A stretch of 64,000 bases of DNA from Elusimicrobiota bacterium (lineage in GTDB: Bacteria > Elusimicrobiota > Elusimicrobia > UBA1565 > UBA9628): the NCBI GenBank assembly GCA_027451985.1, contig DAIDHS010000001.1, forward strand, positions 97,932-161,931, given 5' to 3'. Of this stretch, positions 1 to 50,778 are shown one piece after another; within the stretch, counting starts at the first letter, position 1, and each line of letters starts with the position of its first letter. The position numbers and the translations under genes are program-made. The notes under the pieces were generated by a model. The model did no database searches. It was not told where the DNA came from and saw only the letters and a list, made by a program, of their open reading frames with translations.

Positions 1-748
1 CGGTCGAGATGCCCAAGCCGCGCCTTTGGCCGCGCGTGTAGGATGCCAGCCCGCGGTGCCGGCCAAGGGTCCGTCCTTGCATGTTTTTGATGGGACCCGG
101 CGCCAAGGCCGCGGCCGACTCGCCGACTCGGCCGGCGATGAATTTTCGGTAATCGCGGCCTGGGACGAAGCAGATTTCCTGGCTTTCCGGCTTGTCTGCG
201 GTTTTAAGCTTAAGCTTGCGGGCCTTCGCGCGCACGGCGCTTTTGCTCATGTCCCCCAGCGGGAATCTGGTCTTGGCAAGGTCGTCTCCCTCCAAAGCGT
301 AGAGGAAGTAGCTCTGATCTTTCTCTCGGTCCTCCGCCATGAAAAGCCGTCCGCCTGATGTTTTGGCGTAGTGGCCGGTGGCCAGGCAATCGGCGCCCCA
401 GGCGCGAGCTAGGGCCATGAGATGCCCGAATTTGACGCTCTTGTTGCATTCGACGCAGGGGTTGGGCGTCCGCTGATTCAAGTATGCCTCGATGAACGGC
501 TTGATGACCTTGTCCTCGAAGAGGTCCGCCATGTTGAGCGTGTAGTGAGCCAGGCCCAGCGATTCGCAGACCCGCTTGGCGTCGTCGATGTCGGCCGGCG
601 AGCCGCAGCATCCGAAGCCCGAGGGGCTGCCCGGCATGATTTTCAGCGTGACGCCGACGGTGCGCCAACCCTCCTCGGCCATGAGGGCGGCGGCGACGGA
701 ACTGTCGACCCCTCCGCTCATGGCGACGAGCGCCGTCTTGGCGCTCAT
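1..748 (-). CDS. mnmA: tRNA-specific 2-thiouridylase MnmA; N-terminal ~249 aa present, 3' end of gene outside window
   Basis: This frame runs off the window edge and so is not in the ORF track. Minus-strand translation from the ATG at 748 reads MSAKTALVAMSGGVDSSVAAALMAEEGWRTVGVTLKIMPG...CVECNKSVKFGHLMALARAWGADCLATGHYAK. That is the PP-loop SGGxDSS motif plus the MnmA/TrmU core. The ATG overlaps the iscS stop (ATGA), and iscS-mnmA adjacency is a conserved pairing. Confidence 0.85.
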   Translation of the reverse strand, partial: MSAKTALVAMSGGVDSSVAAALMAEEGWRTVGVTLKIMPGSPSGFGCCGSPADIDDAKRVCESLGLAHYTLNMADLFEDKVIKPFIEAYLNQRTPNPCVECNKSVKFGHLMALARAWGADCLATGHYAKTSGGRLFMAEDREKDQSYFLYALEGDDLAKTRFPLGDMSKSAVRAKARKLKLKTADKPESQEICFVPGRDYRKFIAGRVGESAAALAPGPIKNMQGRTLGRHRGLASYTRGQRRGLGIST

Positions 749-1923
749 CGGGCAGCGGGAACTTGCCGAAGTTTTTCCACGGCGCCGGGCAGGGCCTCCG
801 CCAGCCGTCGGACATCTTCGTCGTTCGTGGCGTAACCGAAGGATATCCGCAAAGAGCCTTGCGCCAACTCCGGCTCCATTCCCATCGCGATGAGCACGTG
901 GGAGGGCTGCGGAGAGCCCGTGGAGCAGGCGGGTCCGCTTGAGACGCAAATGCCGGCCAAGTCAAGCGCGATGACCAGTGCGTGGCCGTCGACGCCAGGA
1001 AAACTCAGATGGAGGCAGGTCGAAAGCCTGTTGGCGGGGTGCCCGTTAAGGCGGCAGTCCGGTATTCGGGCGGCGGTTTCCGCGAGCAGCCTGCGAAAAG
1101 ACTCGTAGCGCTGCTGTTTTTTTGCGTCCCCTAAGTCTTTGAGCGCGAGTTCGCACGCGGCGCCCAGTCCAACGATGAAGGGCACGTTTTCGGTTCCGCC
1201 GCGGCGATTTTTTTCCTGGTGGCCCGCGATCAAGGGCGAAAGCCGGACACCTCGCTTTACATAGAGTGCTCCGATTCCCTTGGGCGCTCCGATTTTGTGT
1301 CCGGAAATGGACAGCAGATCGGCCCCCATTTTCTGCACGTCCAGGGGGATTTTCCCGGCGGATTGGACCGCATCGGTATGAAAAAGAATTTCCTTTTCGC
1401 GGCAGAGCGCGGCGATGCCCTCCACGGGCTCGATGGTTCCGACTTCATTGTTGGCATGCATGACGGAAACGACGGCGGTCTCCGGGGTGAGGAGGCCTTC
1501 AAACTGTTCGGGGGCCACATAACCGTATTCATCGGCTTTGGCGAGCGCGCGGTCAAAGCCGCGCATTTTGAGCTGGACCAAAGTCATGCGCACCGCGTCG
1601 TGCTCTATGGGCGTGGATACAACGCGCGGCTTGGTGCGTCCGTAACTCTCCTCCCATTTGGACCAGGCGGCTCCAGAAATGGCCAGGGTGTCCGATTCGG
1701 ACCCCGAGGAAGTGAAGACGATTTCCTGCGGGTCCTTCGCGTTTACAAGCGCCGCGACCTGCTCACGCGCCCGTTCCACGGCCTTGCGCGCCCGCTGGCC
1801 AAGGAAGTATGGGCTACCGGGATTGCCGTAGTGCTCGCGGAAATACGGAAGCATGGCGTCCAGAACTTCCGGACGAATCGGAGTCGTGGCGTTGTAATCG
1901 AGGTAGGTAGCGTCGCGCGTCAT
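745..1923 (-). CDS. iscS: cysteine desulfurase, class V aminotransferase (IscS/NifS type)
   Basis: 392 aa. Contains the PLP-lysine motif SGHKIGAPKGIGALYVKRG and the active-site Cys loop SSGPACSTGSPQPSHVLIAMG. N-terminus MTRDATYLDYNATTPIRPEVLDAM is typical of IscS. Confidence 0.9.
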   Translation of the reverse strand: MTRDATYLDYNATTPIRPEVLDAMLPYFREHYGNPGSPYFLGQRARKAVERAREQVAALVNAKDPQEIVFTSSGSESDTLAISGAAWSKWEESYGRTKPRVVSTPIEHDAVRMTLVQLKMRGFDRALAKADEYGYVAPEQFEGLLTPETAVVSVMHANNEVGTIEPVEGIAALCREKEILFHTDAVQSAGKIPLDVQKMGADLLSISGHKIGAPKGIGALYVKRGVRLSPLIAGHQEKNRRGGTENVPFIVGLGAACELALKDLGDAKKQQRYESFRRLLAETAARIPDCRLNGHPANRLSTCLHLSFPGVDGHALVIALDLAGICVSSGPACSTGSPQPSHVLIAMGMEPELAQGSLRISFGYATNDEDVRRLAEALPGAVEKLRQVPAAR

Positions 1924-2669
1924 GGACCGAAACCGAACCCTTTGAATAGATCCTGATCCCCGCTGTTGCTTTGGTTCTGCGTTGAAGCGGCGGGTTTCGC
2001 GGGCAGCGGGGGGGCGGAGCCGGGCAGTCCGCCCATTTTTGGAGGCAGGCCGCTTAAGGCCGGAGCCACGATGGTTTTTTGGATTCCCTGGACGTAGATG
2101 AGCTGCCCTTTCTTGTAGTCATAGTAGAGGTGGAACTGGGATTCCTTGACCTGCGGCTCATAGGCCTTCCCCAGATTCGTTTTTTCCTGCTGCCAACCGG
2201 GATTGAAGATCAAGCGCCCGCGCACATCCACGATGTCGTTAATGATAGGGAGCACGAAGCGGATGCGGTAGAAGCCGTTGGTGTCGCTGACGCCCGGATC
2301 GAAGGACGTGGTGGCGTTGTTTCCGCTGCCGCCGCCGATGGATTCCCCGAAAAGCTCGTCCTCCGGATTGGTAGTTTCACCGGAGGAGGCGACCGCGCGC
2401 ACGATGACTCCCTGGATGGGACTGCCGGAATAGTCGGTAATCTGTCCTTTAATGTAGCCGTCTAAAAACCTGGTTTTTTGGGGGATGGAGAAAAATAGGA
2501 AGTCGTTTTCGCCGGTGATTTGCTCGGTGATGGACAGGTCGGTGACGCTGCCGTCCGCGAAGTCCTGCACGACGATTTTCTGGTTGGCGGCTCCGCAGGC
2601 GGCCAGCGCGGACAGGCAGGCCAGCGCCGCCCAGAGGCGGACCGTTTTTCGCATGGGATATTTTACCAT
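1920..2669 (-). CDS. hypothetical lipoprotein; signal peptide with LAAC lipobox, possible true start at M6
   Basis: 249 aa. N-terminus MRKTVRLWAALACLSALAACGA has an n-h-c signal with lipobox. No recognisable catalytic motif. 4-nt overlap with iscS and 4-nt gap to motB imply co-transcription with the motor genes. Confidence 0.5.
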   Translation of the reverse strand: MVKYPMRKTVRLWAALACLSALAACGAANQKIVVQDFADGSVTDLSITEQITGENDFLFFSIPQKTRFLDGYIKGQITDYSGSPIQGVIVRAVASSGETTNPEDELFGESIGGGSGNNATTSFDPGVSDTNGFYRIRFVLPIINDIVDVRGRLIFNPGWQQEKTNLGKAYEPQVKESQFHLYYDYKKGQLIYVQGIQKTIVAPALSGLPPKMGGLPGSAPPLPAKPAASTQNQSNSGDQDLFKGFGFGP

Positions 2670-2672
2670 GGG

Positions 2673-3428
2673 CTAGGGGGAGGCCGCCTGGGGAAGTTGA
2701 GCTCCCGCAGGGGTTGCCGCCGGCGCGCCGGACTGGGCGGCGGGAGCCGAAGCTGGGGTCGCGGCCGTATTGGCCGCTTGCGGCGGAACGGGAGGAGGCA
2801 GCGGCGCCGCCTCTCCGCTCTTGACTAGAAAAACGACCCGCCGGTTCATGGCTTTGTGCGCGGGCGTGTCGTTGGGTACGACGGGGCGGTACTGGCCGTA
2901 TCCAATGGCGCCCATGTGCTGGGGAGGAAATCCATATTGGTCGACGAGCAGCCGCAGCACGCTGGTGGCGCGGGAAGTGGAGAGTTCCCAGTTGGAATCG
3001 TAATACTCGTTATGGATGGGCTGGTTGTCCGTATAGCCTTCTACGAGGATGTCGTGGTGGGCGGCCAAGCCCTTAAGCGTTGGGGCGATCTTGGCGAGCA
3101 GGGCCTGCATCTGGGCGGTTGTGTCCGCGGAGCCGCTCTTGAAGAACGCGACTTGGCCCTGCTCGTCCAGAGTGATTTTGAGGCCGTCCTTGTCAATGGA
3201 GACCGAGCCGTGCATCTTGTCCTGCTGCATCATCTTCTTAAGCTTTTGCGCCGCGCCGACGATGTTCTTGTTGAGGGCCGCCGACAGGGCGTAGAGAATG
3301 ATGAAGAAGCACACCAGCTCGGTCATGAGATCGGCGTAGTTGACGAGCCAAGGAGGCGCCGCGTGGCCGATCTGCGAGACGCGCGGGTCGGTCTCCTCGA
3401 TGAATCCGCGGGGGGCCTTGAGCGGCAT
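2673..3428 (-). CDS. motB: MotB-type stator protein with OmpA-like peptidoglycan-binding domain
   Basis: 251 aa. The N-terminal TM carries the conserved channel Asp (WLVNYADLMTELVCFFIILYAL). C-terminal OmpA-like region EGYTDNQPIHNEYYDSNWELSTSRATSVLRLL...NRRVVFLV, followed by a Pro/Ala-rich tail. Confidence 0.8.
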   Translation of the reverse strand: MPLKAPRGFIEETDPRVSQIGHAAPPWLVNYADLMTELVCFFIILYALSAALNKNIVGAAQKLKKMMQQDKMHGSVSIDKDGLKITLDEQGQVAFFKSGSADTTAQMQALLAKIAPTLKGLAAHHDILVEGYTDNQPIHNEYYDSNWELSTSRATSVLRLLVDQYGFPPQHMGAIGYGQYRPVVPNDTPAHKAMNRRVVFLVKSGEAAPLPPPVPPQAANTAATPASAPAAQSGAPAATPAGAQLPQAASP

Positions 3429-3441
3429 AGCGGAGCTCGCC

Positions 3442-4242
3442 TCAGGTCCCCGGAGCCGCCGGAGTCGTCGGGTTCTTGACCATTATTCTCTTCGAAGGCT
3501 CGAGGTAGGCCTTGAGGTTGGTTTCCACGACGGAGGGCGTCGCGCCGCTCTGCAGCAGAAGGACGCCGCGGATGATGATTTCCTTAATAAGCAGCTCTTC
3601 CTCCGAGCGCCGGCGCAGCTTGCCGCCCATGGGCAAGAAAATGAGGTAGCCCGCGCCCAAGCCGAAGAAGGCCGAGGCCAGGGCCAGGGCCATGCGCCGC
3701 GGCACAGCGGTGACGTCCGAGATGGTCGAGAGCATCATGATCATGCCGAGAACCGTGCCGATGATGCCGAAGGCCGGGGCGTAGATGCCCATGGCGTTGA
3801 AGATTTCCTGTCCGACTTTGTGGCGTTCGCGGATGAACCCCAGTTCGGTTTCCAGCATGTTGCTGATGAACTCCTGGTCCGCGCCGTCGACGACGAGTTG
3901 GATGCCGCGGCGCATGAAGTCGTTCGGAATGTTTTTAATGTCGGCCTGCAGGGACAAAAAGCCCTCTTTCTTGGCTTTTTGGGACAAGGTGACGAAGATG
4001 GTCACGATGTTGGAGGTGTCTTCGCCACTGGAGAAAAGAACCTTGCGCAGGATTTTCCCTAGCCCGACGACTTGTCCCAACGGATAGTTGACCAAGGTGG
4101 CGCAGAAAGTGCCGCCCATGACGACCAGAAGCGCCTCCATGTTGGCGAAGGGCCGAAATCCCGCCATGCCTTCGCTGTGATAGATTGTCGCGACGGCCAT
4201 CGCGAAGAACGCTAGAATTCCCATGATTGTGGCTATGTCCAT
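3442..4242 (-). CDS. motA: MotA-type stator/ion-channel protein (MotA/TolQ/ExbB family)
   Basis: 266 aa with two hydrophobic helices at the N-terminus and two near the C-terminus (GIIGTVLGMIMMLSTI ... ALASAFFGLGAGYLIFLP). Cytoplasmic loop between them. MotA topology and length. Confidence 0.8.
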   Translation of the reverse strand: MDIATIMGILAFFAMAVATIYHSEGMAGFRPFANMEALLVVMGGTFCATLVNYPLGQVVGLGKILRKVLFSSGEDTSNIVTIFVTLSQKAKKEGFLSLQADIKNIPNDFMRRGIQLVVDGADQEFISNMLETELGFIRERHKVGQEIFNAMGIYAPAFGIIGTVLGMIMMLSTISDVTAVPRRMALALASAFFGLGAGYLIFLPMGGKLRRRSEEELLIKEIIIRGVLLLQSGATPSVVETNLKAYLEPSKRIMVKNPTTPAAPGT

Positions 4243-4290
4243 AAGCGCGCTCTGCGGCCTCCTATTGGATTAAACTGGAATTTCGGGGAC

Positions 4291-4521
4291 TCACGGCGAT
4301 TTCCGCTCGAAGCCCTGAATGGGATTGACGACCTTGCCTTGCGCGTTGACCGCTTGCCTATATTCAAGCACTTTTTTCGTGATCTCCTCCGCGCTTTCGC
4401 GCACGAGGTAGCGGTTGCCGGTGGCCAGGCACACGACGGTTTCCTGGCCTATTTCCAGCGCCTCGATGATTTCCGCGTTGATGACCACGGCGGTCCCGTT
4501 GAGCTTGTGCAGCGTGATCAT
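4291..4521 (-). CDS. flbD: flagellar FlbD-like protein; likely true start is M11 of the track ORF
   Basis: The track ORF is 4291..4551. The internal start MITLHKLNGTAVVINAEIIEALEIGQETVVCLATGNRYLVRESAEEITKKV matches the FlbD consensus MIxLTxLNG...FxLNAELIE. Its ATG (4521..4519) overlaps the TGA of the upstream coiled-coil gene. Confidence 0.65.
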   Translation of the reverse strand: MITLHKLNGTAVVINAEIIEALEIGQETVVCLATGNRYLVRESAEEITKKVLEYRQAVNAQGKVVNPIQGFERKSP

Positions 4522-5948
4522 GAAGCGGGGGGATCGGAGGATTGGCGGCATTCCTCAAGTTTGCGGGCCAAGTCCTGGTTTTCCTTGAGCCGGAAAGCGG
4601 CGACATGGCTTTCCTTCGCGAGCTCGCCCCGGAGGGTCTCCAGGGTGATTTCGAGGTTCTTGATTTGGGCCGCTTGAGCGGAGCAGACGCGCTCAAGGCT
4701 CTCTGTTTTTACAGCGAGCTCGTCTTTTTCTCTTTCTGCGCCCGCCAGTCGGCGCTCGAAATCCCTGGCCAGGACCTGTGCAGCATCCAGGGATTCCTGG
4801 CGGGACTTAAGGGCTTTTTGCAGGGTCATTCTTTGCTGTCCAAGCCCGCGCAATGCTTCACGTTCGTGTTCGGCGAGGCGGGAGACATTCTCCAATTTTG
4901 TCTTCAGCGATTGCAACTCCGCCGTTTTCTTGGCCAGATGGGACTTGAGCATCGCCGTCTGGCGCTCCAGAGCCGCGCACACGCCTTTGAATTTCTGCAC
5001 CGCAGCGTAATACTGCTCGGCCGTTTCCCGATATTTGGACACTTCGGCGAGAGCCTCGGCTTTGACGCGCCGGTTCTCGTTCTCGTACTCTTGGCGCGCC
5101 CGGGAGAACTCGCGCTCTAGGCGCTGCTTCAAATCATCCACTTGTGCTTTGGCGGCGGCAAGCTCGAAGCGCATGACCGCCGCTTCCTTATCCTTTTCGG
5201 CCAGGGCCTGCGCTGTCCCTTGCGACTTGGACTGCTCTTCGCGCATGTCCGATAGCCGGCTTTCCAGCCATTTTTTCTCCGCTAGGGCCCGGGAAAGCTC
5301 GGCATCGGCGCCCTTGAGCTTCTCACACAGGGAGCGCAGATTCCTGTTTTCCTCATCTTTGGCCAGCACGACTTTCTGCCACTGGGCCTTTTCCTCCAGG
5401 TTGCGGCGCTCCATTTCCTGAAGACGGGACGCGAAATGGGCTTCGAATTCCTTTTCCTGGAATTCCTTGGACTGCATCTGGTTCTTAAGCGTGGCGACCC
5501 AGGTCTCCCGCTCCTGAGCCATCCTTTTTTCCATTTCCTGAATTTTCGCCTCGAGCTTCAACCGGACTTCCTCTTGCTCCTGGGTCCGGCGCTCCCGGCG
5601 CATGCGCTCCTGCAGATCCTGAAGCGAGGCTTCGACCTTGGCCGCGGTCGCGGATTCCTGCTCGTTTTTTAGGCTGGCGCGGAGAACCTTTTCGCGCTCC
5701 TCCTGGAGGCGCTTCTCGAGTTCGGCGACTTTCTTCTCGTAGTCGTCGCCGTCGCTTCTCGGGGATTGGAGGGCGGCTCCGGCGGGCGCGAAAGTCGCGG
5801 GCGCGGGAGGAGCCCCGAACGAGGGCAGGGGCGGCGGTCCGGAGCGACCCGGATTGGGCGGGAACCCTCCGGGCAGGGGCGGCGCCTGGCGGCCTCCCGG
5901 CAAGGGGGGGGGAATCGGCGGCTTCTTGGAAAACAAATCGTCGGCCAT
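4518..5948 (-). CDS. hypothetical coiled-coil protein with N-terminal polyproline (PPLPGG) repeats
   Basis: 476 aa. N-terminus MADDLFSKKPPIPPPLPGGRQAPPLPGGFPPNPGRSGPPPLPSFGAPPAPA. The remaining ~400 aa are charged heptad-rich sequence (E/K/R/Q/L). AGGAG RBS 8 nt upstream of the ATG. Confidence 0.6.
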   Translation of the reverse strand: MADDLFSKKPPIPPPLPGGRQAPPLPGGFPPNPGRSGPPPLPSFGAPPAPATFAPAGAALQSPRSDGDDYEKKVAELEKRLQEEREKVLRASLKNEQESATAAKVEASLQDLQERMRRERRTQEQEEVRLKLEAKIQEMEKRMAQERETWVATLKNQMQSKEFQEKEFEAHFASRLQEMERRNLEEKAQWQKVVLAKDEENRNLRSLCEKLKGADAELSRALAEKKWLESRLSDMREEQSKSQGTAQALAEKDKEAAVMRFELAAAKAQVDDLKQRLEREFSRARQEYENENRRVKAEALAEVSKYRETAEQYYAAVQKFKGVCAALERQTAMLKSHLAKKTAELQSLKTKLENVSRLAEHEREALRGLGQQRMTLQKALKSRQESLDAAQVLARDFERRLAGAEREKDELAVKTESLERVCSAQAAQIKNLEITLETLRGELAKESHVAAFRLKENQDLARKLEECRQSSDPPAS

Positions 5949-5959
5949 GGAACTTTCTC

Positions 5960-7957
5960 CTATCCTTTAATTTGCGCCTTGAAGCTTTCCACCCACTGCT
6001 GGATTTGCGGATCGGGGTGGGCTTCCAGCATTTTTTCATACTGGGCCAAGGCTTCGGGCGTGCGGCCCAACTGGTATAAAGCTGAGCCGAGGTATTGGCG
6101 GGCTTGCCATAGGTTTGGATCCAGACTTATGGCGTACTCCAAGTAAGGGATGCTTTGGTCGAATTGACCGGCATCATGAAAGGAGACGCCGGCGCTCAGG
6201 TAGTTTTGCGCCTGCGCCGGATCGGCGGGAGGCTGCGCCTCGCTTCCACCCGGCAAAGCTGCGGGCTCGTTTTTGTGCTTGGCGGCGGCAAAGCGCTGTT
6301 GGCGCTTGTTCTGGGCCGAGAGCTCCTCCTGCATGCCTTCGACGAGGTCGTAGCCGCCTGCCTCCTTGTTTCGAACGGCGATTTTGCCCTCTTTTTCAAG
6401 AACCTTGACCGTGTCGATGATTTTCGCCCGCTCTTCCTCGATTTGCGCGGGGGTGATGTTCTGCGAGTACTCCATCGATTCCTTGAGCAGCGCTGCAGCG
6501 CCCGCCGACATGTTGTTAAAGAACTTGTTGAGGACTTCGGGCGGGGCGTTTTGCAAGGCCTTGGCCATGCCCTCGGGCTTGAGCTCGCGGATGATGAGCT
6601 GCATCTCCCGATCGGGGAAATTGGCGGTGTCCTCGAAGACCAGGAGGTGCTTGCGGACATGCTCGTAGACCATGGGTTTTTCATTCTTGAGGTAGTTGAG
6701 AATGTTGTTGCGGGTCGCGGTGTCCGCCTCATCGATCATGGTGATGAGGCGCTCCAAACCGCCCACGACGAAGTCCACGTTCTCCTTCACGTCCGCGTCG
6801 ATGGCGACCACCTGCTCGCGGGTGACTTGGCGGACCGTCAGGGCCTCCATGGCGACGCGGGCCTGGAATTCGACGGGCAAGGACGTCAAAAGCTGGCGCG
6901 CGTAGTCCGGGCGCAGATAGCTGGCCACGACCGCCACTACCCAGGGCTCCTCTTTGCGCAGGAGGAACATGTAGGCCAGGCGCTTGATGTTCTCCTCATT
7001 GATATAAGCGAAAGGCTCGAATTTTTTCATGGACTCATCCTCCTCGGGCGGCGGGGGCGGGGGCTCCGGCGGCTTTCTTTGGAGGGTGATGTCCAGCTTG
7101 CCCTCCTCGGTCAGTTCGTCGTCGCCTTCGCCTTCGTCTTCGTCCGGCTGCTCGATCTTCGATTCGACGTTCACCTCGGCGGCCGGGCGCTCGCGCATCG
7201 CGCGGATGTACTGGCTCATGAAGCGCCAGAGCGGGCCGAAGAGGAACATCAGGAAAAGCAGAATGAGAATGGCGTAGAGAAGCGGCAGGTAAACCCACGG
7301 GTGCTTCAAGTCTTCGCGCCAATCCGTTTTGGCGTGATTGAAAGGCGTGGGCTGGAAAAAAACCTGATTGGGGGCAAGGTTGTACTGGGACATGGCGTCG
7401 ACGATGCGGCTGCGCACCAAATCCTGCTGGGCTTTGTCCTTGAGCACGCTCTGATCGTGGATGACCGTCACGGACATGCGTTTGAAGACCAGGTTCTCGG
7501 AGAAGTCTTCCTGTTGCATCCCTTTTTGCTCCTGGGCCTGCTGGGCGCTGGCTGCCGAAGGAGCCTGCGGAATTTGGGAAATGGTCTCGGGCTGGGGGAT
7601 GCCGGGGAGGACGAACTGGGTCTTGGTCTGCCCGGTTTTTTGCCCGCTGTTTTTTTCCTTGTATTTCTCGGCCAAGCCCATGCCTTTGCGGTTGGTTTCC
7701 TCGTTTTGGACTTTCAGCTGCATGCCCACGTCCACGAAGGCCATGGCCTCGCCCTTGCCGAGAATGGGGTCGAGAATTTCCTGATCGATTTTCTTTTCCG
7801 AGTCCTGTTTGATTCGATTTTGCTCCATCAGAAGGCCCAAATCGGGCGCTTGAATGACTGCGCCAGCGCGCGAAATGGCGGCGAGGACGGCCGCGCAAAG
7901 TAAAAACGCGGCGGCCCAGGCGCGTTGTCGTGGCTTCTGATGCGATTTTGGTGTCAT
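5960..7957 (-). CDS. chimeric membrane protein: FliF/SctJ-type ring-building motif + TM + FliG-like rotor domain + C-terminal TPR
   Basis: 665 aa. Residues ~150-235, KRMSVTVIHDQSVLKDKAQQDLVRSRIVDAMSQYNLAPNQVFFQ, resemble the FliF RBM (xSVTVxL...QxxAVxxLVxxAVxGL...V). A TM segment follows (PLLYAILILLFLMFLFGPLW), then an acidic/Pro-rich linker (PPEPPPPPPEEDE). Residues ~320-530, EENIKRLAYMFLLRKEEPWVVAVVASYLRPDYARQLLTSLPVEFQARV...GGLERLITMIDEADTATRNNILNYL...FNNMSAGAAALLKESMEYSQNITPAQIEEERAKIIDTVKVLEKEGKI, match FliG middle and C-terminal (ARM) domains. Residues 545-665 are TPR-like. Confidence 0.6.
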   Translation of the reverse strand: MTPKSHQKPRQRAWAAAFLLCAAVLAAISRAGAVIQAPDLGLLMEQNRIKQDSEKKIDQEILDPILGKGEAMAFVDVGMQLKVQNEETNRKGMGLAEKYKEKNSGQKTGQTKTQFVLPGIPQPETISQIPQAPSAASAQQAQEQKGMQQEDFSENLVFKRMSVTVIHDQSVLKDKAQQDLVRSRIVDAMSQYNLAPNQVFFQPTPFNHAKTDWREDLKHPWVYLPLLYAILILLFLMFLFGPLWRFMSQYIRAMRERPAAEVNVESKIEQPDEDEGEGDDELTEEGKLDITLQRKPPEPPPPPPEEDESMKKFEPFAYINEENIKRLAYMFLLRKEEPWVVAVVASYLRPDYARQLLTSLPVEFQARVAMEALTVRQVTREQVVAIDADVKENVDFVVGGLERLITMIDEADTATRNNILNYLKNEKPMVYEHVRKHLLVFEDTANFPDREMQLIIRELKPEGMAKALQNAPPEVLNKFFNNMSAGAAALLKESMEYSQNITPAQIEEERAKIIDTVKVLEKEGKIAVRNKEAGGYDLVEGMQEELSAQNKRQQRFAAAKHKNEPAALPGGSEAQPPADPAQAQNYLSAGVSFHDAGQFDQSIPYLEYAISLDPNLWQARQYLGSALYQLGRTPEALAQYEKMLEAHPDPQIQQWVESFKAQIKG

Positions 7958-8004
7958 GAACGTTTCGTGGGAATGTTAAAGGGAATTCATTACATTTTCA
8001 AGTC

Positions 8005-9627
8005 TCAAGGGCCCTGATTGGAGCCCTGGTTTACGCTGCCCAGGAAATTCTTGATCGTTTCGTTGGTTGGATCGATGGCCAGGGCTTTCTGCCACACGGC
8101 CGTGGCCTTGTCCTTTTGGTCCATCATGTAGAAGGCGCTGCCCATGATCTCGAGCGCCGTCACGTTGTTGGGCTCGATGTCCAGAATGTCCTGCGTTCGG
8201 CGCAGAGCCTGATCGTATTTTCCGTTGTACATGGACTGCCGCGCGTCATAAATCTTCTCCTCGACCCAGGTGAGTTGTTCGGGGCCGATGGGCTTGCGGG
8301 TGATGTCCTTGACGCCCGCCTCCTTCTCGACCATGTTGAGAAGGGCCAGGAGCCGATCATCCTTGGAATTCTTGTTGTAAGCGTAGCGCAGATCGTTGAC
8401 CGATTCTTGGAGATCCCGCCCGTCGACATAAGCGGCCACGCCCTTGCGAATGAAGGTCTGGTAGTCCTGTCCGCCCTCGGCCGAAGGGATGTAGGTCGTC
8501 ACGGCCATCAGGCGCGAGAGCATGGCCTCGACCTGCCTATTGCCCGGCTGAACGTCTAGGGCCTGGTTGAAGCGCTGCGAAGCGAGGGTAAAATCTCCTT
8601 CCTGGAAAGCTTGGAAGCCTGCTTTAAGCAAGGCTTGAACTTGTTCGTTGGATTTCTCGCCGCGGGCTTGGCCGAAGCGGAACGTCGCCGAAATGCGGGT
8701 CGTGGTGCCCAGATCGGACGAGAGGCCTTCGCCGAGATCGAGGCCGATGGAGTGAAAATCCAGGCCGAAGCCGAAGTCTGTCTCTTGGAGGCTGGGCAGG
8801 CCGCGCAGTCCGAAACGCGCCGCGAACCAGCGCGTCACCCAGAACTCGCCGCCGAAGCGGGCGTCGAATGCTCCGACGATGGGGCGGTAGACGTCAAAGT
8901 CCATCACCAGTCTGTCGCGAAAGAGGTAGAGGGAATTCCCCAGAATGACGGTGACGGGCAGATGGTCTTGGGTGTCTCCGCTGGTCCTTGAGAACGCGTT
9001 CTGTAGTCCCAGAGCCAAGTGATAGGGCCCCATCAGCTTCAAGGCTCCCAGATTGATGGTCTCGGAGGTGTCGGAGGAGCCGTCCAAGGCGCGAGTGATC
9101 TGCTGGACCGTCGCGCCGAAGGCCATTGACTTGGTGATGTATTTGCCCCAGCCGATGGAGATGGCCCGATCTTGTTCGCTGAAGCTTCCTCCGGTTGTGA
9201 TTTGGGTAGGCTCGCCCGTCGTGGGATCGAAGACGGCGCTGACTTGCTGGAAATTGCTGGAGGTTAATTGCGTGAGGCTCAGATCCAGGGTGCTGCTGCC
9301 CTTGAGCGGCTGCGCGTAGCTCAAGAAATCGAGGTTGGTCTGGTAGAAAAGGGTCGATTCCATGGCGGTGAATTCCTTGCGCTGGATTTGGGCTAGTCCG
9401 GCGGGATTCCAGTTAACCGCTGAGGCGTCGTCCGAGATGCCGTAGTACGCGCCGCCCATGGCTAGGGCGCGCGCGCCGACGCCGTAAGTGAGAAATTCCC
9501 CGGGCTGTCCTCCGGATTGGGCACGTGCGCGCAAGGGAGCGAAGATAAAAAAAACTGCTGCGGGCAAGCCCGCTGCCGCGAAGCGCCGCCGTCTTGGGGG
9601 CATGCCCCAAGGTCTCGTTTTGGCCAT
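8005..9627 (-). CDS. outer-membrane beta-barrel protein (FadL/PorV-like N-terminus) with C-terminal TPR repeats
   Basis: 540 aa. Signal peptide AAGLPAAVFFIFAPLRARAQ, possibly starting at internal M9. The motif YGVGARALAMGGAYYGISDDASAVNWNPAGL is typical of FadL/OMPP1/PorV-type barrels. Alternating beta-strand-like sequence runs to ~aa 330. The C-terminal 200 aa are TPR-like (ALLKAGFQAFQEGDFTLASQRFNQALDVQPGN...). Confidence 0.55.
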   Translation of the reverse strand: MAKTRPWGMPPRRRRFAAAGLPAAVFFIFAPLRARAQSGGQPGEFLTYGVGARALAMGGAYYGISDDASAVNWNPAGLAQIQRKEFTAMESTLFYQTNLDFLSYAQPLKGSSTLDLSLTQLTSSNFQQVSAVFDPTTGEPTQITTGGSFSEQDRAISIGWGKYITKSMAFGATVQQITRALDGSSDTSETINLGALKLMGPYHLALGLQNAFSRTSGDTQDHLPVTVILGNSLYLFRDRLVMDFDVYRPIVGAFDARFGGEFWVTRWFAARFGLRGLPSLQETDFGFGLDFHSIGLDLGEGLSSDLGTTTRISATFRFGQARGEKSNEQVQALLKAGFQAFQEGDFTLASQRFNQALDVQPGNRQVEAMLSRLMAVTTYIPSAEGGQDYQTFIRKGVAAYVDGRDLQESVNDLRYAYNKNSKDDRLLALLNMVEKEAGVKDITRKPIGPEQLTWVEEKIYDARQSMYNGKYDQALRRTQDILDIEPNNVTALEIMGSAFYMMDQKDKATAVWQKALAIDPTNETIKNFLGSVNQGSNQGP

Positions 9628-9795
9628 TATATCTTCGGCAACCAGACGCTCCCCCAGGGAGTCGTGGCTTTGCGCCCCTGCCTTGCGGCAGGTTTGCCTT
9701 TATCGCCTAACCCGCCCTGAACGTCCGCCGCGGCCTTGATCGCAACCCCTCGATCGTAACGGCGGAAACTGGCCGGATTAGGATGCAACATGGCA

Positions 9796-9823
9796 AGTAT
9801 AACAGAAAGACTTGACTTGTCAA
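9796..9823 (-). promoter_or_regulatory. sigma70-like promoter TTGACA-N16-TATACT reading toward the OM-barrel/motor gene string
   Basis: Minus-strand reading ttgacaagtcaagtctttctgttatact. It lies inside a near-palindrome cttgacttgtcaag, ~160 nt upstream of the 9627 start codon. Confidence 0.5.
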
Positions 9824-9896
9824 GGGGGTTGGGCGTTTTTCTTCTATGGTTCATGCGGGTCCGAGTTAAAATAAAGTTAAAAGTAGCTTTTGGATA

Positions 9897-41694: not shown

Positions 41695-43866
41695 ATGTCA
41701 TGGCTTCGTTCGGGCATTTTCCGCCGTTTCCTGCTGGTCATGGGAGCTTTGTCCCTGCTTCCCGTGGCCTTGCTTGGCTATCACCTTGTTAATTTGAGCC
41801 GCGTCGGCATCCAGAATTCCGTCCTGGAACTGCAGACCAAGCTCGCCGAAAAACTGTCCCAGCAGGTGGACGATTACTTCAACGCCGCCAATTCCAACAT
41901 CTCATTCGCCTTATCGGCCTTGAACGGCAGCATGCCCTGGAGCGACAAGCAGACTCTTCTGGAAAACCTGGTCGAAACCAACGCCGGAATCCAGAAGATC
42001 TCGATGCTTAATCCGCAGGGCCGGGAAATCGTCAAGATCTGCGGGCCGTCACTGCCCTGCGGCAAGAATCTCGCGTCTTATGCCGACGATAAAGGCTTCG
42101 TGAAGTTCCGTAAGAGGGGTTTGAGGACCGTCTCGTTGCTTGCGGACAAGGGCATGCCCGCCTTGTGCTTCTATATTCCTTTGAACAAAAGCATCGTCGC
42201 GCGGATTCTCATGTCCCTGGAGGTTCTCGCCACGCGCATTACCTCGGAAACCGTCAACGGTACGGGTTTCGCGGTGATGGTCGACTCCAAGGGCAATCCG
42301 CTTTTCTACCCTGCCGGCCGACTCTCCAAGTCGGACGTGGAGTCCTTCCATGCCTGGCCCATTGTGATCGACGCCCTTCAGGCGACCAGCGTCGGCTCCA
42401 GCGAGTTCAGCGACGCCGCCGGAGTTAAATATGTCGGCGCCTACGCCCCGGTGGCTTCCATCGGTGGGGCCGTCATCATTCTCCAGCCCTGGCGCGACGC
42501 CTACGCCTCCGCCATCCGCATGAAGCAGGACGCCATGAGCGCAGTGGCGCTGGTCCTCGTCTTCTGTCTCATAGCGGCCTTTTTCCTCGCGCGGCGGCTA
42601 ACCCAGCCGCTTTTGACGCTGACCCGGGCCGCTGAAGCTGTTTCATCGGGGGATTTCCAGACCAAGGTCACGGTCGGCACCAAGGACGAATTGCAGGAAC
42701 TGGCCGAGACCTTCAACACGATGATCGAAAAGCTCAGGCACTACTCCGATCTGCAGGTCGACCGGCTCATCGCCGAGGAAGGCAAGAGAAACGCCCTGCT
42801 CTTCTCTATTGACGAGGCAATTTTGATGCTGGATCAAGACGGGCGCGTTCTGCTGGCCAACCGCCGCGTCTTCGAGCTTTTCGGACTCGCTCAAGACGCC
42901 CCGATCGAAGGGAAGACCCTGACGGAGGCGTTTCCGGAGTCTCCCCTGCGCGACGCGGTCGTCGCGGCGGCTCAGAAGCCTCGCGCTGATTTCTTCAAGG
43001 ACTTGAACCTGTCCACAAAAAACAAGCACAGCTCTTTGCGCGTGGGGGCCCAGCCGGTGGTGAGCCCTCAAGGGCAGTCCCATCTGGGCGTCATCGTGGC
43101 CATCCGCGACATCACGCTGGAAAAAGAGCTTGACAAGATGAAGGAGGAATTCCTCCACAGCATCACGCACGATCTGCGCAACCCCCTGGGCTCGGCAATT
43201 GGCTTCCTGGATCTTTTGCTTAAGGGGACTGCGGGCGTTTTGACCCCGCCGCAGGCCAATATGGTATCGTCGGTGAAGCGCTCCTCAAGCCGCCTGATGG
43301 GCATGGTCAACAACATTCTGGATATCGCCAAGATGGAAGCGGGCAAGATCCGGCTCCAGTTGAAGCCGATTTCGCTCGCGGGCATCGCGAGCCGCTCCAT
43401 CGCGACGTTGGAGTCATTGGCCCTCAATAAGCGCATCCGCGTTGAATTGGCGGCGGCCGAAGAATACACTGCAGATGTCGATGGAGATCTGCTGGAGCGG
43501 GTCTTTACCAATCTTCTCGGAAACGCGATTAAATATACCCCGGAGGGGGGGAATATCGTCATCTCCATCAAGGATGACGGCGCTTCCTTCACCTGCTGCG
43601 TCGCGGACAGCGGCGAGGGAATTCCATCCGAGTATCTGGGGCGCATTTTCACCAAATTCGAGCAGGTGACTGGGCAGAGAAAGGGCGGCACCGGGCTTGG
43701 TTTGACTATCTCCAAGTTTTTCGTCGAAGCCCATCGCGGAAAAATCTGGGTCGAATCGGAGGTGGGCAAAGGCGCGCGCTTTTACTTCACGATTCCCAAA
43801 GGCTTGGCCCTGGATGCGGAGGGAAACGTCATCGCCGAGGCGTCCCGGACGGAGAGCGTCTCATGA
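41695..43866 (+). CDS. sensor histidine kinase (TM - periplasmic sensor - HAMP - PAS - HisKA - HATPase_c)
   Basis: 723 aa. N-terminal TM and ~250-aa extracytoplasmic domain, then a second TM. HAMP LTQPLLTLTRAAEAVSSGDFQTKVTVGTKDELQELAETFNTMIEKLR. H-box EEFLHSITHDLRNPLGS. G-boxes NLLGNAIKYTPEGG and GTGLGLTISKFFVEAHRGKIWVESEVGKGARFYFTIP. Confidence 0.9.
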   Translation: MSWLRSGIFRRFLLVMGALSLLPVALLGYHLVNLSRVGIQNSVLELQTKLAEKLSQQVDDYFNAANSNISFALSALNGSMPWSDKQTLLENLVETNAGIQKISMLNPQGREIVKICGPSLPCGKNLASYADDKGFVKFRKRGLRTVSLLADKGMPALCFYIPLNKSIVARILMSLEVLATRITSETVNGTGFAVMVDSKGNPLFYPAGRLSKSDVESFHAWPIVIDALQATSVGSSEFSDAAGVKYVGAYAPVASIGGAVIILQPWRDAYASAIRMKQDAMSAVALVLVFCLIAAFFLARRLTQPLLTLTRAAEAVSSGDFQTKVTVGTKDELQELAETFNTMIEKLRHYSDLQVDRLIAEEGKRNALLFSIDEAILMLDQDGRVLLANRRVFELFGLAQDAPIEGKTLTEAFPESPLRDAVVAAAQKPRADFFKDLNLSTKNKHSSLRVGAQPVVSPQGQSHLGVIVAIRDITLEKELDKMKEEFLHSITHDLRNPLGSAIGFLDLLLKGTAGVLTPPQANMVSSVKRSSSRLMGMVNNILDIAKMEAGKIRLQLKPISLAGIASRSIATLESLALNKRIRVELAAAEEYTADVDGDLLERVFTNLLGNAIKYTPEGGNIVISIKDDGASFTCCVADSGEGIPSEYLGRIFTKFEQVTGQRKGGTGLGLTISKFFVEAHRGKIWVESEVGKGARFYFTIPKGLALDAEGNVIAEASRTESVS

Positions 43867-45272
43867 CGGCCCTGCGGCGCGGCGCAGGGCGTACGGCGCA
43901 GGGCGCACTTGTCTGCTGTTTGCTATTGTGGCTGGGCGTCGCGGCATCCGGCAGGGAAATCTTTCAGAAAGTCGTCGTGCGCCCGGGAGACACACTGTGG
44001 GGCATCGCGCAGACGTATCTCAAGAATCCCCAAAAATGGAATGAGATCCTTAAATATAACACGCTGCCTTCCCAAGATCCCACGGCGGCTCTTCCTGGAA
44101 TGGTTCTGCGCGTGCCGGTCAATCTGATCAAAGAGAGCCTGCAGGCAGCCTACCTCGTGCAGAAGGAGAACACCGTTTATTTTAGGCGCCGCGACACTGC
44201 CGGCTGGAAATCGGCGTCGCTTCATCTGAACTTGTATCAAGGAGATTCCCTGCGCACGCTGGATAACGCGAGCGCGCGCGTGAAGTTCCTGAGCGGAGGG
44301 AACTTGGCCATGAACGCCAATTCAATGGCGATCATCCAACCGCCCAAAGCCGGCTACGACGTCAACCTAGAGCGGGGCAGCGTTTTCGTTGGGCACGCCA
44401 CGGTGGTCACAGCTTCGGCGCGCATCGAGCCAAAGACCAAGGATACGCAGTACATGGCCAAGGTCGGCGAGGACTTGAGCACCATCGTCGAGGTTTATCG
44501 CGGCCGCGCCGCGGTTTCGGCCCAAGGCCAGACCGTGGACGTCAACGCCGGCATGGCCAGCGTGGTTCCCAAGGGTTTGGCGCCCAATCTGCCTCAAAAA
44601 ATAGCCGATTTTTCCGCTCTTCAGGACCAAGCCGCGGCGTTGAACGGGATTTCCAGATCCGTCAAAGTCGCGGGGGCGTTCCCGTCGTCTCTGGGCGAAG
44701 GCGCCCTGCCGGGAAAAGCGGCGCTCCGGGACGCGTCTTCCGGCATTGCGCGGGAAGTGTCGTCACTGGAAATCGGCGTGCCCGTTTCCGGTTATCGCGT
44801 CCAAGCCTCGCGTTCGCCCGCTTTCGATAGGCTGGTGTTCAATAGGGTTTTTAACTCAGATGAGAAATTCGATCCGTCTTCGGCGAACTTGCCTCCGGGT
44901 ATTTATTGGTGGCGCATCGCCCTCATCGACTTGCTCGGCACGCAGGAAGATTTTTCATCGCCAAAGCGCTACGTCATCGGCGGGGGAGAGTCGTCCCAGC
45001 AGATCGATCCGTCCGCTCTGATGCTTTTGATCCATCCGCAAGACGGCGAAAATGTTTTTTCACCGGAATACCGCGTTTCCGGACGCCTCAAATCGTCTCA
45101 GGCGTCCGTTTCGGTGAACGGCCGCCCGGCGCGCCAGGATGAGGAAGGCAATTTTTTCGCCGATATCCGCCTGAAGGCAGGCGACAACAAGGTAGCCGTG
45201 ACGGTCCAGGATGCTTCCGGGCAGAGCGCTACGGTCGTTAGAACCGTGCGCTACTCGCCGGGCGGCGAGTAA
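43863..45272 (+). CDS. LysM-domain protein with FecR-like domain
   Basis: 469 aa. Signal/TM ALVCCLLLWLGVAASG. LysM KVVVRPGDTLWGIAQTYLKNPQKWNEILKYN. The following region (SARVKFLSGGNLAMNANSMAIIQPP...ERGSVFVGHAT) resembles a FecR sensor domain. ATGA overlap with the kinase gene stop. Confidence 0.65.
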   Translation: MTALRRGAGRTAQGALVCCLLLWLGVAASGREIFQKVVVRPGDTLWGIAQTYLKNPQKWNEILKYNTLPSQDPTAALPGMVLRVPVNLIKESLQAAYLVQKENTVYFRRRDTAGWKSASLHLNLYQGDSLRTLDNASARVKFLSGGNLAMNANSMAIIQPPKAGYDVNLERGSVFVGHATVVTASARIEPKTKDTQYMAKVGEDLSTIVEVYRGRAAVSAQGQTVDVNAGMASVVPKGLAPNLPQKIADFSALQDQAAALNGISRSVKVAGAFPSSLGEGALPGKAALRDASSGIAREVSSLEIGVPVSGYRVQASRSPAFDRLVFNRVFNSDEKFDPSSANLPPGIYWWRIALIDLLGTQEDFSSPKRYVIGGGESSQQIDPSALMLLIHPQDGENVFSPEYRVSGRLKSSQASVSVNGRPARQDEEGNFFADIRLKAGDNKVAVTVQDASGQSATVVRTVRYSPGGE

Positions 45273-45273
45273 A

Positions 45274-47082: not shown

Positions 47083-47543
47083 TTGACGATTTTGAGCGAG
47101 GTCCGGCGTCCGTCGGTTTCCTCACTCCTGACGTTGTTGGGATCCATCATGGGCTTCCCATCGACCAGAAAGAGATAGTGATACCGGCCGGCAGGAAGTG
47201 CCAAGCTAGCCTCCCACCAGCCGTGGGCTTTGAGATTCAAGATGAAGGTCCCGCCTTTCCAAGCATTGAACTCTCCAATGACCGCCACGGATTTGGCCTT
47301 GGGCGCGTGCAACCGGAAGGTTACGAACTTGATTTTTGGCAGTCGCCGCCCCCCCTTGGAGCGGCGGGTCTCATCGTGGCGGAAGGTGGAGGGGGCTGTC
47401 TGGTGCAATGTCGCCGGTTCGAGACCGCTTAAGAACTTTCTGTAGCCAAGGACGGATTTGAGAAGGAAGGTGGAGGGCACCACGAGGAGAGCAAAGCCCA
47501 AAATGAGGCTCCCCCAAAAAAACCATTTGCCCCGGTCCGTCAT
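47079..47543 (-). CDS. membrane-anchored CBM48 (glycogen-binding, AMPK-beta/isoamylase-N-like) domain protein
   Basis: 154 aa. N-terminal TM WFFWGSLILGFALLVVP. Domain VTFRLHAPKAKSVAVIGEFNAWKGGTFILNLKAHGWWEASLALPAGRYHYLFLVDGKPMMDPNN matches the CBM48/E-set glycogen-binding fold signature (VxFxx..A..V.V.G.FN.W......M.....G.W...L.L..G.Y.YKF.VDG.W..DP.N). Confidence 0.6.
   Translation of the reverse strand: MTDRGKWFFWGSLILGFALLVVPSTFLLKSVLGYRKFLSGLEPATLHQTAPSTFRHDETRRSKGGRRLPKIKFVTFRLHAPKAKSVAVIGEFNAWKGGTFILNLKAHGWWEASLALPAGRYHYLFLVDGKPMMDPNNVRSEETDGRRTSLKIVK

Positions 47544-50774: not shown

Positions 50775-50778
<4 letters not shown>
48934..50778 (+). CDS. glxK: glycerate kinase domain (aa 1-~375) fused in frame to a signal-peptide-like segment and a ~220-aa TPR-like domain
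   Basis: N-terminus MSVRILAAPNAFKGSLSALEAARAF...ISDGGDGL is the classical glycerate-kinase-family start. After ...AKSWAAKAAAMAARGLAPVFALCFLAAAARASQPP the frame continues into TPR-like helices (DAHFWLGVAMGRLGQ...YVALAQAYESDGQKAKAVDVLQQVLKV). Confidence 0.7.

Follow-up and report, generated by a model that had tools for sequence, protein, structure and literature searches.

A string of genes at the start of the window (the whole 64,000-nucleotide stretch that was analysed, from contig DAIDHS010000001.1 of an Elusimicrobiota bacterium) encodes a MotA/MotB stator, an FlbD-family protein and a protein in which FliF-like and FliG-like domains are fused, together with an outer-membrane beta-barrel protein, a coiled-coil protein and a lipoprotein. 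These seven genes are referred to here as the module. The explanation we favour, with a probability of approximately 0.6, is that they specify a non-flagellar rotor-stator machine, derived from the torque core of the flagellum and coupled to the outer membrane; the operon probably powers some other surface machine. As the module lacks several of the features that define a flagellum, and several of those that define a type IX secretion system (T9SS), it was assigned to neither.

Nine consecutive and tightly packed open reading frames (ORFs) run on the minus strand from position 9627 down to the window edge (position 1). The original prediction, made from the sequence of the window, had listed nine minus-strand genes in this order; all of the ORFs were found where it had placed them, and protein families were assigned with Pfam and NCBIfam:

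8005 to 9627, minus strand: outer-membrane barrel protein with TPR domain, 540 aa, first gene of the string.
5960 to 7957, minus strand: fusion protein (rotor candidate), 665 aa.
4518 to 5948, minus strand: proline-rich coiled-coil protein, 476 aa.
4291 to 4521, minus strand: FlbD/SwrD-family protein, 76 aa (PF06289, 4.8e-19).
3442 to 4242, minus strand: MotA (MotA_ExbB, 5.9e-26).
2673 to 3428, minus strand: MotB (MotB_plug, 1.3e-11; OmpA, 1.6e-15).
1920 to 2669, minus strand: lipoprotein (lipobox LAAC).
745 to 1923, minus strand: cysteine desulfurase of the NifS/IscS type (Aminotran_5, 6.5e-82, and NifS/IscS models).
1 to 748, minus strand: mnmA (tRNA_Me_trans, 3e-65), cut by the window edge.

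The product of 5960 to 7957 is the rotor candidate. From its N-terminus it possesses a transmembrane or signal helix, a periplasmic domain resembling RBM3 and the collar of FliF, a transmembrane helix, an acidic and poly-proline linker, FliG_M, FliG_C and TPR repeats, with Pfam matches to FliG_M (7.9e-10), FliG_C (4.1e-24) and TPR. Its membrane topology, judged by sequence, is like that of FliF: a basic N-terminus and hydrophobic helix are followed by approximately 190 periplasmic residues, a second helix and a basic stretch. The main parts of the protein lie as follows:

7283 to 7864, minus strand: periplasmic domain with the fold of the RBM3 and beta-collar of the FliF MS-ring (aa 32 to 225).
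6344 to 7018, minus strand: FliG_M and FliG_C, including the Gly-Gly hinge and torque helix (aa 314 to 538).
5999 to 6223, minus strand: C-terminal TPR, cytoplasmic by topology (TPR_19, TPR_2, TPR_16 and TPR_1, approximately 1e-8).

Residues 314 to 538 match FliG of T. maritima in phmmer searches (1lkv, 1.5e-31; 3ajc, 8e-32). The C-terminal TPR is conserved across the family of the fusion protein, in which neither the Gly-Gly hinge nor the final Phe of the MFxF motif varies, and the periplasmic domain carries a loop of approximately 60 residues, predicted to be disordered, with invariant G92, G94, Y99 and L117-P118-G119. FliG_N is absent, the FliF-like ring domain being covalently joined instead, and RBM1 and RBM2 are also absent, leaving a single RBM3/collar-like domain in the approximately 190 periplasmic residues. 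In flagella, RBM1 and RBM2 hold the export gate and FliG_N binds FliF.

Residue conservation was counted over 66 to 83 species-level sequences. The position of the FliM-binding motif EHPQ is occupied by (E/D)(E/D)PW in 80 of 83 fusion proteins (EEPW in that of the window). For the torque helix, E. coli numbers were carried over through an alignment with the Thermotoga protein and through what we take to be the E. coli FliG sequence. On this numbering the equivalent of R281 is Gly in 81 of 83 sequences and that of D288 is Glu in all 83, D289 is replaced by Ser, Ile or Ala and R297 by Thr or Ser, and the equivalent of K264 is uncharged.

By its family matches, the stator that accompanies this protein is of the flagellar type. 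The best PDB matches of MotA are MotA of C. sporogenes (6ysf, 9e-49) and PomA of Vibrio (3e-44), and its seven NCBIfam matches are all to flagellar MotP, PomA or MotA (201 to 211 bits, below the equivalog cutoffs), none being to TolQ or ExbB. MotB (PDB match 6ysf_A, 7.5e-30) possesses a plug and, besides a Pro/Ala-rich tail, a peptidoglycan-binding domain of the OmpA type, and it retains the transmembrane channel Asp (D33, in YADLMTE), which is kept in 65 of 66 family members; the Asp and OmpA domain had both been noted in the original prediction, and its suggestion that the stator is probably functional is supported by these sequence features. At the MotA positions aligned to R88 and K89 of PomA, Lys is found in 65 of 66 sequences, followed by Lys or Arg in 65 of 66, while the position aligned to PomA E96 is Gln in 57 of 66; these PomA residues presumably correspond to R90 (R88/K89) and E98 (E96) of E. 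coli MotA. The contact between the MotA Lys-Lys and the FliG Glu would thus be kept, and the R281/E98 pair has been replaced on both proteins, which would fit two proteins that co-evolve as partners.

No flagellar Pfam family beyond those of the string itself was identified in any large ORF of the 64 kb, which bears out the earlier observation that the window contains no further flagellar genes. The remaining large ORFs comprise genes of housekeeping enzymes and of sensor kinases, as well as several whose large products have no family match. Genes for the export apparatus, FliM/FliN, rod, hook and filament were found neither in the large ORFs of the window nor within 10 kb in eight related loci that were annotated with Pfam. 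Of the components that mark a flagellum, the stator is thus present; a FliG with N, M and C domains, the EHPQR motif and the torque charges is not, and neither is a separate FliF with RBM1 to RBM3. It has been described that most free-living Elusimicrobiota lack structural flagellar genes yet possess motAB, flbD and fliG, the role of which was called "unclear" and "enigmatic", and that only a few genomes of the phylum hold a complete flagellar set (Uzun et al., 10.1101/2022.07.08.499144). Flagellar genes were also reported as absent in Elusimicrobia (Doud et al., PMC7031533). A literature search returned no paper describing the fusion protein or the operon, the sole mention being one paragraph in the preprint of Uzun et al., and the architecture of both appears to be undescribed.

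Homologues of the fusion protein number 367, of approximately 620 to 705 aa and with the same domain architecture, and every named one is from Elusimicrobia. A search with the N-terminal 330 aa returned only 78 representatives from 1.84 billion proteins; those that are named again come from Elusimicrobia, save for one 4.9-kb contig. This contig, labelled "Thermoprotei archaeon", carries a family member (P0205, RLE71917.1) and is probably mis-binned. In a scan of one genome per species, 140 genomes were found to encode a relative of the fusion protein, and 80 of these loci were retrieved (numbered with the prefix L below), 74 of them bearing the label Elusimicrobia or Elusimicrobiota and six coming from unclassified "bacterium" metagenome-assembled genomes (MAGs). 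The closest relative is in the MAG REEB145, with a fusion protein 98% identical to that of the window. Identities across these genomes range from 42 to 98%, so the protein appears to have been kept under selection.

The order of the seven genes (barrel, fusion protein, coiled-coil protein, flbD, motA, motB, lipoprotein) is common to 84 non-duplicate loci, namely 83 of relatives and the window, from approximately 80 species-level genomes, and with such recurrence the arrangement is not due to chance. The presence of each component was scored with its own hidden Markov model (HMM) against six-frame translations of all loci, counting only those long enough to judge. The coiled-coil protein was found in 75 of 75 loci, FlbD in 65 of 67, MotA in 62 of 63, MotB in 59 of 60 and the lipoprotein in 50 of 55, and the barrel in approximately 73 of 74 (three loci were scored by eye). 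Gene tables of L001 to L005 show the same order, L005 differing downstream; in the most divergent locus, L006, no flbD, motA or motB adjoins. The module is flanked by housekeeping genes, or by the gene of a giant surface protein, in the window and the eight Pfam-annotated loci; in the latter these neighbours include genes of pyruvate:ferredoxin oxidoreductase, succinyl-CoA ligase, cysteine desulfurase, MnmA and ribosomal proteins. The module is conserved across free-living Elusimicrobiota. Its flbD-motA-motB order, together with the existence of a few flagellated Elusimicrobiota, suggests that it may have descended from flagellar genes rather than being a pre-flagellar relic.

The barrel protein possesses an N-terminal signal peptide, a beta-barrel at approximately aa 40 to 320 and a C-terminal TPR domain (Pfam, aa 466 to 532), which is presumably periplasmic. 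The window protein matches the NCBIfam model PorV_fam of the PorV/PorQ family (1.4e-21, 77.4 bits) under its cutoff of 90, and its orthologues in L005 and L006 exceed that cutoff (125 and 105 bits). A PDB sequence search with the full protein returned matches to the TPR part only; a profile of seven barrels had PorV as its sole PDB match (6h3i_F, E 2.9e-5). At its N-terminus the coiled-coil protein has a poly-proline region bearing PPLPG motifs; a conserved helical segment of approximately 150 aa and then a coiled coil of variable length follow (457 to 850 aa in close relatives), and 40% of the residues of the protein are E, K, R or Q. No Pfam, PDB or PADLOC match, transmembrane helix or signal peptide was identified in it, and it is predicted to be cytoplasmic. 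FlbD gave no match in a PDB sequence search; its gene directly precedes motA. The lipoprotein is beta-rich and carries a conserved C-terminal motif, DLFKGFGFG(P/Q); its family of 221 homologues is confined to Elusimicrobia and has no Pfam match, and its AlphaFold2 model is of low confidence (pLDDT 52.6).

Conserved (P)LPG motifs were observed in Pro-rich, predicted-disordered segments of three module proteins: the fusion protein (aa 117 to 119, window region 7600-7610), the lipoprotein (aa approximately 210 to 212) and the N-terminus of the coiled-coil protein (5850-5948). TPR domains occur on two module proteins, one on each side of the inner membrane, and the motifs and TPR domains may be docking pairs. 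An argument for a shared ligand from the likeness of the rotor TPR to the barrel TPR was dropped, the similarity being generic (29% over 52 aa).

Among relatives, the barrel gene frequently adjoins the gene of a giant protein. Such a gene lies upstream, in the same orientation and ending no more than a few hundred nucleotides short of the barrel gene, in 25 of the 69 loci that could be evaluated. Examples are L003:1-7974, L005:1-7823 and L006:1-7241, the products of which are 13,779, 14,454 and 17,141 aa long, respectively, and are among the largest bacterial proteins; the 22 others include L044, L055, L059 and loci within L064-L086. The giant proteins are homologous to one another and contain internal repeats. 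They end in a fibronectin-type III-like unit, as read from the alignment (PF00041 is recorded on some homologues), followed by a strongly conserved C-terminal domain (CTD) of approximately 100 residues with the motif YPNPxDxRKGG...VTITIYDLLGY...KGGY...RKIGVIH. This domain matches FlgD_ig (6.5e-7), the C-terminus of PorU (9e-9) and the C-terminus of PorZ, and it matches Por_Secre_tail, the T9SS type A sorting domain, below threshold; some members of the CTD family carry the NCBI annotation "T9SS type A sorting domain protein". In type IX secretion, C-terminal domains of this kind are bound by PorV and PorQ, which keep PorU and PorZ on the cell surface, and in Flavobacterium the gene of the giant adhesin, sprB, is followed by that of its barrel partner, sprF. 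The adjoining of a giant CTD gene and the barrel gene, taken with this role of PorV/PorQ and with the sprB/sprF layout, suggests that the barrel holds the giant protein. Adjacency is not required, since in the complete genome CP096137.1 there is no giant gene at the motor locus and a CTD protein of approximately 3,400 aa, annotated as two overlapping ORFs, is encoded elsewhere. In that region (L087:360-10603; 304-315 kb of CP096137.1), an ORF of 3,239 aa overlaps one of 200 aa bearing the CTD, and the two are probably one gene split by a frameshift or assembly error. Stand-alone CTD proteins of approximately 165 aa are also numerous in Elusimicrobiota, such as that encoded by L006:7797-8345 between the giant and barrel genes.

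A small, unrelated, divergent gene occupies the place of the giant gene in 35 of the 69 loci:

L001:7331-7993, L002:7384-8037 and L004:6855-7478, minus strand: small divergent gene, also present in 32 other loci.

Its product is Pro/Ala-rich, of approximately 210 aa, with one membrane helix and a conserved C-terminus (ANNPxLQQYL); it is absent from the window.

The nearest described system overall is the core of the flagellar motor, the nearest protein architecture is the FliF-FliG fusion of Chlamydiaceae, and the nearest functional analogy is the gliding and T9SS machinery of Bacteroidota. The module shares with the flagellar motor a plugged MotA/MotB pair with channel Asp and OmpA-like anchor, FliG_M, hinge and FliG_C, an RBM3/collar in FliF topology, and flbD before motA. 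Unlike in the flagellar motor, FliF and FliG are one polypeptide, RBM1, RBM2 and FliG_N are missing, EHPQ is replaced, one of five torque charges is left and a TPR has been added, and the genes alongside encode a PorV-like barrel, a coiled-coil protein and a novel lipoprotein. The chlamydial fusion protein has been described as a protein of approximately 330 aa with RBM2, one further RBM-like unit and a FliG_M-like region only, in bacteria that are not thought to be flagellated (Bergeron, 10.1101/023564); the discussion there relates it to the type III secretion system of chlamydiae, and no link to a stator is described (10.1101/023564). Compared by description, both proteins place two membrane helices around a reduced FliF periplasmic region, followed by a FliG-like cytoplasmic domain, in one polypeptide, whereas the protein studied here has RBM3/collar, both FliG_M and FliG_C with the torque helix, a TPR and 665 aa, and lies in an operon with motAB and flbD. 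The SpoIIIAG ring of the sporulation channel of Firmicutes, in contrast, has neither a FliG part nor a stator.

With the Bacteroidota machinery (SprB, SprF, PorV/PorQ, GldLM) the likeness lies in an ion-driven inner-membrane motor of the 5:2 type and, in relatives of the window, in a giant gene with a sorting-like CTD that precedes the gene of a PorV/PorQ-like barrel. The differences are that MotAB, rather than GldLM, would act here on a FliG/FliF-like ring and that the adhesin gene is absent from the window. No Pfam or NCBIfam match to GldL/GldM (PorL/PorM), SprA/Sov, PorK/PorN or PorU was found in the string or in annotated neighbouring genes, and to our knowledge Elusimicrobiota lie outside the group in which T9SS is known. 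Tol-Pal and ExbBD-TonB belong to the same inner-membrane motor superfamily, and in them too OmpA-like, TPR and lipoprotein parts span the envelope, but the MotA of the window matches flagellar models only and its MotB is plugged. No TolA/TonB, TolB or Pal was identified in the string, and the coiled-coil protein is without a membrane anchor or the C-terminal domain of TonB/TolA. Since Elusimicrobia possess a separate Tol-Pal locus (PMC12204202), an identity with Tol-Pal or Ton was rejected on this ground and on the family matches.

A working mechanism can be proposed for the machine. The fusion protein would assemble into an inner-membrane ring of approximately 30 copies, as FliF RBM3 and SpoIIIAG do. 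Wall-anchored MotA5B2 units, using proton flow, would push on the ring of FliG_C through a reduced charge pair, formed by the Lys-Lys of MotA and the Glu that is invariant in the FliG helix, and the ring would turn. The cytoplasmic TPR and the coiled-coil protein may replace the missing FliM/FliN ring, and the collar with its conserved loop may relay the movement to the barrel, through the TPR of the latter, and to the lipoprotein. More speculatively, the machine could serve to move, anchor or export giant surface adhesins, as a gliding-like or surface-protein-handling device. In its fullest form the proposal is of an envelope-spanning rotary machine in which the stator turns the FliF-FliG ring without export gate, rod or filament and torque passes to a PorV-like barrel that holds giant adhesins by their T9SS-like CTD, amounting to a new gliding or exporting apparatus; we put this forward as tentative and consider it more likely to be wrong in some part than right as a whole. 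The original prediction had proposed an ion-driven motor for a non-flagellar apparatus, and the conserved non-flagellar loci, the altered rotor protein and the literature support it; rotation and the nature of the driven apparatus we infer.

Several observations weigh against a rotary machine that handles adhesins. Four of the five classical charges of the FliG torque helix are gone and one acidic residue is left, so that the interface may be non-functional or otherwise used, and the equivalent of MotA E98 is mostly Gln. The AlphaFold2 model of the periplasmic domain is only moderate (pLDDT 69), with one third of the domain predicted to be disordered. The link to adhesins rests on relatives: no gene with a T9SS-like CTD was detected by HMM in the 64 kb of the window, the unrelated small gene takes the place of the giant one in the 35 loci noted above, and neither the window nor the annotated loci showed any further component of a T9SS. 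The conserved, tight coupling to the desulfurase and MnmA genes hints at a constitutive housekeeping role and not at a motility organelle, and the cultured Elusimicrobiota, which live as symbionts in the gut or inside cells, have been described as non-motile (10.1101/2022.07.08.499144).

The explanation closest to the favoured one is that the MotAB-driven ring fills the role of GldLM/PorLM as an energiser for the export or surface attachment of proteins with a T9SS-like CTD, serving secretion and sorting, not motility. It overlaps the non-flagellar rotor-stator machine favoured here, differing only in the use made of the motor's work, and it draws on the resemblance of the barrel to the PorV/PorQ family, on the giant CTD genes upstream in 25 of 69 loci and the CTD protein elsewhere in the complete genome, and on the fact that T9SS transport is energised by a 5:2 ion-driven motor (cited in PMC12204202). 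Homologues of SprA/Sov, PorK/N, PorL/M and PorU were, however, not seen in the window or annotated loci, no CTD protein is encoded in the window, and the literature search returned no report of T9SS in Elusimicrobia; we regard secretion as the sole purpose of the motor as improbable, if worth keeping in view. A structure that does not rotate at all, in which a relic ring and a stator-like channel serve as a trans-envelope tether, stabiliser or sensor in the manner of Tol-Pal and no torque arises, would account for the lost torque-helix charges and the Gln at the MotA E98 position, for the co-transcription with housekeeping genes conserved in many loci, and for a set of parts (TPR, OmpA-like domain, lipoprotein, outer-membrane barrel) that reads like an envelope-tethering parts list. 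Against it, the channel Asp, the plug and the MotA Lys-Lys/FliG Glu are near-invariant over 66 to 83 species, which is hard to explain unless ion-driven movement against FliG_C has been kept; moreover, Elusimicrobia own a separate Tol-Pal (PMC12204202), and the NCBIfam matches of MotA are all to flagellar stators and not to TolQ/ExbB. A static structure is accordingly rated as less probable still.

An ordinary but split flagellar operon, in which this string supplies the stator, FlbD and a fused MS-ring/FliG to a flagellum encoded elsewhere in the genome, would be in keeping with MotA and MotB being closest to flagellar stators and with the flbD-motA-motB order, which is found in spirochaete flagellar operons. 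The complete flagellar sets of a few Elusimicrobiota (10.1101/2022.07.08.499144) also speak for it, as does the finding that FliF-FliG fusions of Salmonella still allow flagellar assembly and rotation (cited in 10.1101/023564). Yet the large ORFs of the window and the 10 kb around the module in the eight Pfam-annotated loci of relatives hold no flagellar genes, the fusion protein is without RBM1, RBM2, the EHPQ motif and FliG_N, the constant partners (PorV-like barrel, coiled-coil protein and lipoprotein) are no known flagellar proteins, and structural flagellar genes are missing from most of the free-living Elusimicrobiota that carry motAB, flbD and fliG (10.1101/2022.07.08.499144; PMC7031533). 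The original prediction had allowed for a detached piece of a flagellar regulon; when the loci of relatives were compared, no orthologues lay beside flagellar genes in those eight loci, and we consider an ordinary split flagellar operon very unlikely. An anti-phage or accessory system on a MotAB-like motor, such as Zorya, can practically be set aside. MotB has weak matches to ZorB models (best 2.9e-21), as expected of any MotB/OmpA protein, but PADLOC returned no ZorA match and none for the other proteins of the string, MotA is short and of the flagellar type without the long tail of ZorA, and the fixed chromosomal context beside housekeeping genes across the phylum is unlike that of mobile defence islands. 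A defence identity was therefore rejected.

FliF and FliG, the rotor of the flagellum, are known almost only from complete flagella, which are built around type III export. In the module the core of rotor and stator occurs by itself: the rotor is a single candidate ring protein, outer-membrane components from another lineage are joined to it, and it appears to have been kept under selection throughout a phylum in which most members lack flagella. If the ring rotates, it would offer structural biology and biophysics a natural minimal rotor that needs a single rotor protein and a single stator; it would make a modular origin of the flagellum testable, as a torque module without an export module; and it may explain movement or the handling of giant surface proteins in uncultured Elusimicrobiota, including magnetosome-bearing ones without flagella. 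Should the envelope-spanning rotary proposal be true, it would follow that a flagellar rotor-stator module can occur and function independently of the type III secretion core. Even without rotation, annotations of these proteins as "flagellar motor switch protein FliG" or "TPR protein", which wrongly imply flagellar motility, would be corrected.

The arrangement of the string is compatible with the translational coupling noted in the original prediction at three junctions: ATGA overlaps are present at iscS/mnmA, lipoprotein/iscS and coiled-coil/flbD, at the last of which the start codon of flbD overlaps the stop codon of the coiled-coil gene. The other gaps, which had been put at 4-14 nt, are 3, 13, 48, 11 and 47 nt. 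The flbD ORF reaches 4551, and the ATG at 4521 is the start that agrees with homologues. No convincing terminator-like site was found inside the nine-gene string. A promoter candidate lies approximately 170 nt 5' of the barrel gene:

9796 to 9823, minus strand: sigma-70-like promoter candidate, TTGACA-16-TATACT with extended TG, 11 of 12 matches, by consensus match only.

An ORF of 75 aa on the minus strand (9627-9854) abuts the start of the barrel gene and contains this promoter-like site; it is probably no gene. The cysteine desulfurase and MnmA, which act in tRNA 2-thiouridine synthesis, are probably co-transcribed housekeeping genes rather than parts of the machine. They are also found 3' of the module in L001-L004 and, as judged from ORF sizes, in many further loci, though not in L005, so that the association of two housekeeping genes with a membrane machine is a conserved one.

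Divergent from the module, at 9955-41658 on the plus strand, six consecutive ORFs of 542, 363, 861, 872, 2,460 and 5,277 aa were identified. None has a Pfam or NCBIfam family, save for a weak ResIII match in the 2,460-aa protein. The 872-aa and 2,460-aa proteins possess signal peptides, and the C-terminus of the 5,277-aa protein (PIWPW, a hydrophobic helix and RHRILRAKR) resembles a C-terminal sorting or anchor signal. The two giant ORFs of this group (2,460 and 5,277 aa) were considered as homologues of the CTD giants and rejected, with no BLASTP similarity, no CTD by HMM and no NCBIfam match. L008, an 89% relative, has ORFs of corresponding sizes in the same order ahead of the module. Further along the plus strand, the gene at 48934-50778 encodes a protein of unusual architecture, in which a glycerate kinase domain and a C-terminal TPR/TAtT-like region are fused. 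Three adjoining genes at 43863-47543 encode LysM with Glucodextran_B, Glucodextran_C (SLH-like) and CBM48/AMPK1_CBM domains; their products look cell-surface or glycan-binding, and the genes adjoin that of a Cache/HAMP/PAS histidine kinase.

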